64,000 bases of DNA, from the NCBI GenBank assembly GCA_963611155.1, contig CAVDRA010000001.1:590-64589 (forward strand), in the 5' to 3' direction. Made by a program: the position numbers and the translations under genes. Shown piece by piece: positions 55,424-58,088 of the stretch. The notes beneath the pieces were generated by a model. The model ran no database searches. It worked only from the letters and a program-made list of their open reading frames with translations, and was not told the origin of the DNA. The stretch comes from a bacterium (GTDB taxonomy: Bacteria > Spirochaetota > Spirochaetia > Treponematales > Treponemataceae). Position 1 is the first letter of the stretch, and every line of letters begins with the position of its first letter.

Positions 55424-55463
55424 GTTTATTTTTTGTTTTTAGCGGTCTGGAGAAACTCAAGGA

Positions 55464-55546
55464 GGGGAAAGACTTCCCCCCGCTCCAGCCGCTGTCGCGT
55501 CTTACGCTACCCCTTCTAGCGGGCTCAATCGCCGCCCGCAACGCCC
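55464..55546. repeat. Dispersed structured palindromic element, family A, copy 2
   Basis: GGGGAA-AGAC-TTCCCC...ACCCC...GCGGGC/GCCCGC-AACGCCC; same layout as 30617-30708. Confidence 0.7.
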
Positions 55547-55606
55547 GCTTTTGTGCTATTTTCTGTCCTACCTTCCAAATTTTATGATAAAATGTTTCCG
55601 TTTTTT

Positions 55607-55915
55607 TTACACTGGGACAGGAATCATATTATTAAAACGCAACGTTCCGTAAAGTTTTTTATCATTTCGCATATAAATTGTAAGTATGCTGCTTTTTTTA
55701 TTTTTCCAGTCTTAGGATCAAAATCTTTATCTTTAGGAGAAGACATGGGAATAAAAAAATTGTGACCGTTTATATTCTGAATTAAACCAAGATATTTTCT
55801 GCGATAAGTTCTGTCGGGTAATTCTTTATTCATCATAACATGAGGTTCTGTTTTTCTAAGATAGTTAATGTACTTGTCTGAAATAATGCTGAATCTATAG
55901 TCTATATTTTTCCAT
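55607..55915 (-). pseudogene. Type III toxin-antitoxin ToxN/AbiQ-family toxin, two frameshifts and C-terminally truncated
   Basis: Stitched translation: ME/NIDYRFSIISDKYINYLRKTEPHVMMNKELPDRTYRRKYLGLIQNINGHNFFIPMSSPKDKD...KIKK/SSILTIYMRNDKKLYGTLRFNNMIPVPV*. YINYLR, RKYLG, IPMSSPK and NNMIPVP are ToxN/AbiQ hallmarks. Confidence 0.85.
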
Positions 55916-55946
55916 AAAACAAGGCGACCTTATGAGCCGCCTTGTT
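55916..55946 (-). terminator. Intrinsic terminator between antitoxin repeats and toxin ORF
   Basis: Minus strand AACAAGGCGGCT-CATAA-GGTCGCCTTGTT-TT directly before the toxin ATG. Confidence 0.8.
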
Positions 55947-56051
55947 AAGTTCTCCAGTTGATGGTCGGAGTTTACCCAATTTTAAATTCTCCAGTTAGAG
56001 CCGGAGCTTGCTCAATTTAAGTTTTCCAGTTATGGCCGGAACTTACCCGCT
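55945..56051 (-). ncRNA. Type III antitoxin RNA (ToxI/AntiQ-like), about 3 pseudoknot repeats of 35-37 nt
   Basis: Repeat units start (plus-strand) at 55945, 55982 and 56017; core GGGT/GAGC-AAR-YTCCG-RCC/GCTC-..AACTGGARAAYTTAA; lies between promoter and terminator. Confidence 0.82.
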
Positions 56052-56057
56052 GACTAA

Positions 56058-56086
56058 AATATAGCAAGGATAGACAAAATCGCCAA
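56058..56086 (-). promoter_or_regulatory. Putative sigma70 promoter of the type III TA cassette
   Basis: Minus strand TTGGCG-17 nt-TATATT with an extended -10 TG, 6-7 nt before the first repeat. Confidence 0.6.
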
Positions 56087-56692: not shown

Positions 56693-56718
56693 CGCCGCCT
56701 TTGAACACTGCAATCTTT

Positions 56719-56872
56719 AAACATTTCGTTTACCGCCGACAAACGTTTTATTTAGCGGCGGTAATTTTTTTGTTTGCAGGCGATAAATCTTTTGTTTGCC
56801 GAAAGCAAACATTTTATTTGCTGTGTAAATTCCTTTTGTTTAGCCTCGGCAAAGTTTCCGTTTAACAGCTAA
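56719..56872. repeat. Degenerate 22-bp tandem repeat array (7 units)
   Basis: Units start at 56719, 56741, 56763, 56785, 56807, 56829 and 56851; RTTT at unit positions 10-13 in every unit. Confidence 0.75.
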
Positions 56873-57055
56873 ATTTATTTTATAAAAAAAATGTCTTTTT
56901 ATACTAAAACAATTCACAAAATTGTAAATTTCTACCATAAAATATATTGACAATTTTATAAAACGTTATTATTTTTTACTTAGATGCAATTTTCAGGAGA
57001 CGCGGAAATGCTCGCCGCGCAAAAAGAGAGTTTTTTTGTAAACGAGGTAAAACAA

Positions 57056-57463
57056 ATGGGAGTAACTGCTTTTGGAAAGGAACTAAGAAAGATGAGGATT
57101 GACGCTTCTGAAGTTCTCGGAACAATGGCAACAAAAATCGGAGTAAGTTCTGCTTACCTTTCTTCTATAGAAAACGGACAAAGAGACATACCCGACAGTC
57201 TTATTCCGGCACTGGCAAAAGCCTACGGCCTTTCTAAGGAAAAACAGGAAGAGCTGGAAGAGCTTAAGGCTCAGGTAAAGGGGGCGGTAGATGTAGATTT
57301 TAAGGATAAAAAGGATAATGCGGACTATGTAGAAACAGCCGTAATGTTCGCAAGAGATTTTTCAAAACTATCTGAAGAGCAAATTTTGATAATGAAAGGA
57401 CTGCTGGAAAAATTTAAGGCTGAGCAGTCGGGAGTTAATATTGCAGACAGAACAGGCGCATAA
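57056..57463 (+). CDS. XRE-family HTH regulator (ImmR-like)
   Basis: TAFGKELRKMRID...L..MA.KIGVSSAYLSSIENGQR.IP; GAGGT RBS before ATG 57056. Confidence 0.88.
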   Translation: MGVTAFGKELRKMRIDASEVLGTMATKIGVSSAYLSSIENGQRDIPDSLIPALAKAYGLSKEKQEELEELKAQVKGAVDVDFKDKKDNADYVETAVMFARDFSKLSEEQILIMKGLLEKFKAEQSGVNIADRTGA

Positions 57464-58088
57464 AAACAACACAGCGGAAAATATTAAAAATGAAGCGGAA
57501 GCTATTGTTCTTACGGACGACGGAATGCGTCTTGCCGCATTCTGGTCGAGGATTTTAAGCGGGTGCGGTTTTGACGGCAATTTTAATCCGCTGCATGTAA
57601 TGGAAAATGTAATTCCGATAATCGACAAGAGTTTCAACTATTGTGTCATAGAAAAAGAAACATGGATTTATGGAGAGCTCCTTCCCGCCTTCTATAGTCC
57701 AAACGAAAACACGATTTTCTTAAGATCTGATATTTACAGCAAAGCTCTTGCGAACGATGCATTTTCCTTGATTACGGTTACCCACGAGGTTACTCACAGC
57801 ATCCAGTCAATAATAATGCGCTTTTTGCGCTCTCTCGAATGTATCGAATTAAAGACAGAGTTCTGCAAAAACAATAGCCCAGAAATGCGCCGGCATGAGC
57901 ACCAGACCGACAGGCTCATGAATCTTGTGCTGAGCCCGGAAAGTCTTTTAAAAAACAAAAGCGATGAGGATATTGCTATGGAATATCTTGTAAAACCGCT
58001 CATGGGTTTTATGTGCTCAGTCATAAAATATTCTGGAAAAATGCTTCTTGAAGTTTTGAACGAAATTCAAATCCAAAAGAGCGCATAA
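57441..58088 (+). CDS. ImmA/IrrE-family metallopeptidase-like protein
   Basis: Y.P.ENTIFLRSDIY..A......ITVTHEVTH (HExxH) and a downstream EHQTD; overlaps the XRE gene. Confidence 0.72.
   Translation: MQTEQAHKNNTAENIKNEAEAIVLTDDGMRLAAFWSRILSGCGFDGNFNPLHVMENVIPIIDKSFNYCVIEKETWIYGELLPAFYSPNENTIFLRSDIYSKALANDAFSLITVTHEVTHSIQSIIMRFLRSLECIELKTEFCKNNSPEMRRHEHQTDRLMNLVLSPESLLKNKSDEDIAMEYLVKPLMGFMCSVIKYSGKMLLEVLNEIQIQKSA

Follow-up and report, generated by a model that had tools for sequence, protein, structure and literature searches.

The locus at positions 55607 to 56086 of the window (the whole 64,000-nucleotide stretch of DNA analysed here) is very probably the decayed relic of a Treponema ToxIN system, a type III toxin-antitoxin, whose intact orthologs most likely work like other ToxIN. 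An active cassette in the source genome, as the initial annotation could be taken to mean, is not supported. The toxin is dead, with toxN having lost its start, shifted frame and been truncated. On the minus strand the elements run promoter, tandem repeats, terminator-like hairpin and toxN, which is the ordering expected of ToxIN (PMC8860590). The features of the locus and its flank are as follows.

56058..56086, minus strand: predicted sigma-70-type promoter; -35 TTGGCG at 56086-56081, 17 nt, extended -10 TATATT at 56063-56058.
56017..56050, minus strand: ToxI-like repeat R1; core 56048-56024, tail 56023-56017; outer stem-1 pair G-A.
55982..56016, minus strand: ToxI-like repeat R2; core 56013-55989; nine of nine pairs standard.
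55945..55981, minus strand: ToxI-like repeat R3; core 55977-55952; outer stem-1 pair G-A.
55910..55946, minus strand: terminator-like hairpin; arms 55946-55936 and 55928-55918; U-tract weak and interrupted.
55692..55905, minus strand: toxN pseudogene, piece 1; start lost at 55905-55903; catalytic-motif residues retained; ends at a 1-nt frameshift.
55607..55691, minus strand: toxN pseudogene, piece 2; homology to about 55612, stop at 55609-55607; residues ~99-176 missing.
55452..55556, no strand assigned: dispersed palindromic GC-rich REP-like element, flanked by the truncated toxN and by htpG, which is convergent with it; five further copies in the genome.

The ToxIN/AbiQ layout and identity proposed in the initial annotation held up. 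The ToxN model PF13958 matched piece 1 with 44.4 bits, above its cut-off of 25 (model positions 4-61 of 159), and piece 2 with 21.6 bits, below the cut-off (positions 66-88). Both pieces matched PADLOC AbiQ, and neither was matched by NCBIfam. Membership of the TenpIN and CptIN families was examined via Pfam, PADLOC and repeat length and rejected, as ToxN was the sole Pfam match and AbiQ the sole PADLOC match of both pieces, and the repeats measure 35-37 nt. The predicted promoter lies where it had been placed, and its -10 occurs at the equivalent position in every clade ortholog whose upstream DNA is present. It is this position that carries the call, since the scan found six promoter-like sites against 4.9 expected, numbers that alone say little. 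The hairpin at 55946-55918 folds strongly (-17.9 kcal/mol, z -5.0, none of 200 shuffles as stable), although a terminator scan of the window did not call it, likely due to its weak U-tract. We considered this U-tract as a sign of decay particular to the window and dropped the idea, the tail being identical in the related locus L235.

Three repeats had been read at 56050-56017, 56016-55982 and 55981-55945, and their letters proved right. TRF described the array (56050-55945) with a period of 35, 2.9 copies, 76% matches and a score of 129, and no second repeat array was found elsewhere in the genome. The repeats share 78-88% identity among themselves, with 4-7 differences per 32 aligned positions. 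The window thus lacks the near-identity that the available text of PMC12283969 and PMC13682666 presents as typical, a trait that was no criterion in 2012. Same-slot identity with the intact ortholog L044 is 0.91-0.94, and the R2 core differs from R2 of L044 and L048 at one loop base. Standard tools gave little on single units. ViennaRNA, in which pseudoknots are impossible, folded them into either stem 2 alone or a different hairpin (z -1.0 to -1.6), and the Rfam ToxI model RF02519 had no match at gathering score in the window, nor a match in L044 or L039. As this model scored weakly even on the near-identical array L227 (26.7 bits), it is too narrow to decide the membership of the window repeats.

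We then turned to orthologs for the fold. Repeat units were extracted by a sequence-only profile from 44 loci with a toxin at least 50% identical to L044, the register of group D arrays being set by their own 38-nt period, and 37 distinct units were aligned with MAFFT without use of structure. The model tested has nine pairs, namely four in stem 1, four in stem 2 and a junction pair. Of 333 cells, 94.6% were paired, compared with 83.9% in shuffled alignments. Two-sided changes occurred at six of the nine pairs and in 44 cells (12.3 shuffled), and the covariation score was 0.398 (0.184 shuffled), with none of 500 shuffles reaching the observed share of paired cells, number of two-sided cells or score. 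Controls with a slid register gave at most 64.3% paired cells and a score of at most 0.180. Further pair types numbered 11 against 12.8 in shuffles and so showed no excess, and the 44 two-sided cells amount by eye to perhaps ten independent events, relatedness being ignored by the shuffles. The structure was also picked from the same sequences, and the support is for these reasons strong rather than a formal probability. The predicted H-type pseudoknot is nevertheless well supported in each repeat, in line with the covariation that had been claimed: both stems covary two-sidedly, and the orthologs keep the pairings.

Both stems described earlier are present, but their extent needed revision. 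Stem 1 is 4 bp in the orthologs and stem 2 likely includes a fifth, junction pair (across the 37 units, G-U in 17, G-C in 9, A-U in 1 and non-standard in 10). The statement that differences between the window repeats preserve pairing applies to three of the four variable paired sites. It fails at the outer stem-1 pair, which is G-C or A-U in 35 of the 37 units and G-A in R1 and R3, the sole two units that break it. The 25-nt core and 7-nt tail agree with the numbering of E. coli ToxI, given in the accessible part of PMC8860590 as core 1-25 and tail 26-32 with a cut after A32. By sequence comparison, the repeats also have the loop pattern reported for ToxI in the available portion of PMC3401426, with a loop of 3-4 nt, a short one and a variable one. 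In group A, the junction U and UAAGU loop end of R1 fit U12 and U18-U22 of the E. coli ToxI U:U:G triple. Applied to the window, the E. coli register predicts cuts at 56017/16, 55982/81 and 55945/44, behind UAA. These are the unit borders of the initial annotation, and its choice of the A-rich junctions as candidate cut sites is borne out to this extent. UAA is the usual tail end (43 of 49 internal linkers, on a rough reading of motifs).

Heterogeneity within arrays was assessed in 43 loci minus 11 duplicates, leaving out L004, which is cut by a contig end. Three units were present in 22 arrays, two in 7 and one in 2. Repeats in the same slot of different genomes were more alike than repeats within one array, with identities of 0.97 and 0.75 in group A, 0.93 and 0.81 in B, 0.99 and 0.75 in D, and 0.85 and 0.80 in C. 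Same-slot stems reached 100% conservation in A and D. Within arrays, stems were less alike than the remaining positions (A 0.70/0.82, B 0.74/0.90, D 0.65/0.88), the reverse holding for group C (stems 0.87, rest 0.70), whilst the predicted toxin-binding tails were nearly invariant. The window repeats group with B, as do those of L232. The stem conservation seen in A and D fits slow compensatory change and equally fits selection per slot.

The second of these, specialised slots, is possible though doubtful. Each repeat would have its own stability or binding, and the mix would tune ToxN release or hinder cross-pairing and recombination, so that difference itself is selected. The same-slot conservation of the 11 group A loci speaks for it, as it persists despite toxins 87% identical, four-fold sites at 0.53 and promoter spacers at 0.37. 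So does the middle repeat, which has a GAG:CUC stem 1 in group A, group B and the window though the toxins are 55% identical, and abortive infection is known to be tuned by repeat number and complex stability (available text of PMC5086642 and PMC5772629). By contrast, intact toxins of the same clade also follow near-identical arrays of two or three repeats (L042, L049-L052, L055, L059) or a single repeat (L054, before a 174-aa frame), suggesting that mixing is likely not required. The unit matrix of groups A and B is not diagonal either, with R1 nearer R3, and purifying selection on pairing without gene conversion predicts the same pattern.

Single units were also observed more widely: L054, L021, L026, L030, L171 and L220 have open toxN frames after one recognisable repeat, which suggests natural single-unit antitoxins. 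Another set of loci (L173, L184, L192, L032-L038) carries ToxI-like units with an extra loop hairpin, ~49-52 nt long and often single.

Heterogeneous repeats are not special to the window locus. We surveyed PF13958-linked arrays in Treponema loci, the family of G398 (L008, Roseburia; PF13958 in 35 of 251 genomes), the order of G400 (small genomes, with a label inferred to be probably Bacilli; 30 of 201 positive), and metagenome and viral contigs, taking 30 loci per search from genome searches and drawing the contig sets with a Treponema query. From 230 loci, 210 were usable and formed 101 toxin clusters at 80% identity. At least two units were found by a pseudoknot descriptor in 67 clusters (6 of 101 in shuffles); as units were found by pairing, their pairing is not independent evidence. 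Arrays were called heterogeneous if some pair of units differed at five or more columns, and the script returned 49 heterogeneous, 16 near-identical and 2 intermediate. Four of the 49 were removed because one of their units was false or wrongly placed (L035, L102, L217, L230), leaving 45 of 67, a share inflated by the descriptor missing some uniform arrays (L196, L197). By source, heterogeneous arrays made up 11 of 14 in Treponema, 10 of 21 in the order of G400, 4 of 6 in the family of G398, 13 of 17 in metagenomes, 7 of 7 in viral contigs and 0 of 2 elsewhere. Diverged repeats are not the rarity they had been thought, being found in viral contigs as well as in Treponema and Bacillota; some arrays (L022, L157, L179) are far more diverged than that of the window, at ~55-60% identity. 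In the metagenome contigs, an exact 33-nt pattern gave no matches and a protein scan found nothing closer than 65% to L044. We also asked whether TRF blindness could be the sole reason for the literature view. This idea was weakened, since TRF finds 30 of the 45 heterogeneous arrays on strict and 42 on relaxed settings, compared with 19 and 20 of the 21 other arrays.

Two further observations came from the survey. The Treponema loci L022-L024 and L036 and L179 from the family of G398 have three-unit arrays of similar design that are ~55% identical internally, possibly by transfer between phyla. Of these, L022 and L179 are missed by strict TRF, and the set offers the best test cases for slot specialisation. 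ToxN was also found on 14 viral contigs (L157-L170), the source of the seven multi-unit viral clusters.

A stronger proposal would hold that heterogeneous ToxI is the majority state in these lineages and that its slots are specialised, with three different pseudoknots, their order maintained over long periods, building mixed 3:3 complexes tuned for phage-triggered release. We consider this unlikely. If true, the array would be a small RNA code rather than a copy-number device.

Broader specificity, as raised in the initial annotation, fared worse still and is very improbable. Diverged monomers would neutralise several ToxN, and an orphan array would be retained for protection against ToxIN elements that enter the cell. 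ToxN is indeed common in the genus and often multi-copy: PF13958 matches 41 of the 90 genomes searched from the genus, several of which encode two or more full-length copies, and 0 of 60 other relatives, whilst the L044 protein was matched in 44 of 337 same-genus genomes (E <= 1e-25). The array and promoter also remain recognisable after toxin loss. However, the repeats differ mostly in their stems whilst the predicted toxin-binding tails are nearly constant, which argues against the idea. In the accessible part of PMC3475682 on Pectobacterium ToxI, a compensatory U9C/A25G swap of the end stem pair keeps antitoxicity, but tail bases 27-28 are essential and neither C27G nor U28A is tolerated. 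Antitoxins of the ToxI type act selectively on their cognate toxin (PMC5086642, as available), and the pair-breaking changes of the window array are absent from 35 of 37 units. Orphaned or collapsed copies with cut toxins at L235 and L242 are what plain decay predicts.

The toxin itself is beyond repair in the window. Its start and lesions were placed by alignment to L044, L048, L235 and the proteins P0003-P0005. The ATG at 55915, taken earlier for the toxin start, is out of frame and encodes six residues; the start of orthologous toxN aligns to 55905-55903, where the window codon is a non-start. One base is missing around 55698-55691, and reading stops at 55609-55607, equivalent to residue 98 of 176, with the last 44% absent. 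An HMM check of a stitched protein had been proposed, and both pieces do match the family, but no stitching of window DNA yields a whole toxin. A family search of the assembly, which is 96.9% complete, returned just these two pieces and no second ToxN copy. Intact frames are found in L044 and L048. The full-length relatives P0003-P0005 are 80-89% identical to piece 1, and PF13958 scores 118 bits for P0003 and for L044. L044 matches PDB 4ATO (E 2.7e-24), 2XD0, 7D8O and 4GLK, and its Arg, Ser, Ser and Lys align with Lys33, Thr52, Ser53 and Lys55 of the Pectobacterium toxin. Arg at position 33 also occurs in two E. coli clusters (PMC8860590, in its available text). Among broken relatives, P0006 has a frameshift where the window has one, and P0007 begins at a downstream Met. 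In L235 (genome G374) the array has two units, the first resembling a hybrid of R1 and R2, and the toxin ends after ~13 codons; in L242 (G073) the array is gone and the toxin cut.

A locus that is intact in the living organism, with lesions that are errors of the 305-contig assembly, is extremely unlikely, for although the frameshift falls in or beside an A run, the lesions are three and separate, one of them truncates the gene and is followed by unrelated DNA, and the independent public protein P0006 has a frameshift at the equivalent position, with P0007, L235 and L242 also broken.

Several elements adjoin the relic. The REP-like element at 55452-55556 has ~90-nt matches in many genomes of the genus and no match in Rfam. 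At 56709-56863, five to seven partly palindromic units with 22-nt periodicity lie upstream of an HTH gene and are possibly an operator array or a second repeat element. At 56984-58088 on the plus strand, this XRE-type HTH gene (HTH_31; PADLOC capH, E 4.5e-9) overlaps a 215-aa ORF with an HExxH motif, which had no family match. We take these two to resemble a repressor and ImmA/IrrE-type protease pair. Together with a DUF4469 gene, the pair points to a small accessory island flanked by htpG and gyrA.

For intact orthologs we propose a mechanism in which the observed layout, ToxN homology, three lesions of the window, two-sided covariation and slot-by-slot conservation are joined to what solved ToxIN systems suggest. 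One transcript would span array and toxN, with the hairpin holding RNA in excess of toxin. ToxN would cut after each 7-nt tail to give monomers of 35-37 nt, which would assemble with it, probably 3:3, so that each diverged repeat is cut out by, and likely neutralises, one ToxN. Phage infection would lead to loss of the labile RNA and free the RNase; by analogy, an anti-phage role is likely for the intact locus. Heterogeneity may have arisen by ancient duplication and drift through compensatory changes in the stems, tolerated by the toxin, with single-stranded contacts kept and repeats not homogenised. In some lineages a single unit would later have been re-amplified, or the array would have shrunk to one or two units. 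In the source genome, with the toxin dead, the RNA is likely an orphan beginning to decay.

Much of this had precedents. According to the available text of PMC3401426 (Blower 2012), T. succinifaciens and T. vincentii carry toxIN (entries 122 and 125) with 3.1-3.2 repeats of 34 nt; the T. vincentii array is noted there as 'more variable', and a Clostridium phage D-1873 entry has a central repeat with multiple mismatches. The parts available of PMC12283969 and PMC13682666 call ToxI and CptI near-identical and describe non-identical TenpI repeats that are both functional, with rescue by each of two such repeats reported in PMC13682666. Covarying candidates upstream of toxN have been listed for Clostridiales and Leptotrichia (PMC8040213, in part). 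Treponema ToxIN, variable ToxI repeats and functional non-identical TenpI repeats were thus known. The accessible portions of PMC8860590, PMC4627078 and a 2026 preprint hold nothing on heterogeneity, and no paper describing heterogeneous ToxI arrays conserved slot by slot turned up in a search that left subscription literature mostly outside and beyond which supplements may list some. Our addition is a modest correction to two recent papers that describe ToxI repeats as near-identical: arrays are often heterogeneous, and about two thirds of those with several repeats in our survey were. Natural compensatory variants within one array separate the bases that ToxN recognises from those to which it is indifferent, and the heterogeneous units, which Rfam misses, could be used to build better ToxI models. 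Ready pairs for testing whether repeat identity tunes abortive infection exist among close relatives, in which the repeats are mixed, uniform or single.

Compared with known systems, the locus is like TenpIN in that non-identical repeats keep a pseudoknot and covary in stem 2. It differs in that TenpIN has a toxin of the TenpN family, longer repeats and a 2:2 complex, and its papers, as far as available, contrast it with near-identical ToxI. The T. succinifaciens and T. vincentii toxIN share genus and family with the window locus, but their toxins belong to another lineage, resembling L028, L029 and L031 and ~27-32% identical to L044, and only consensus repeats were analysed in the available 2012 text. 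Unlike characterised ToxIN, the window toxin is a pseudogene; its repeats differ at 4-7 of 32 positions rather than the one or two seen in published ToxI (as available), and the junction pair of Treponema units is mostly G-U or G-C in place of U-U. With the ToxIN family as a whole (B. thuringiensis 4ATO, Pectobacterium 2XD0, E. coli 7D8O and AbiQ 4GLK), the locus shares the layout, ToxN homology with the catalytic motif, about three repeats of 35-37 nt, two 4-bp stems in a 25-nt core and A-rich linkers.
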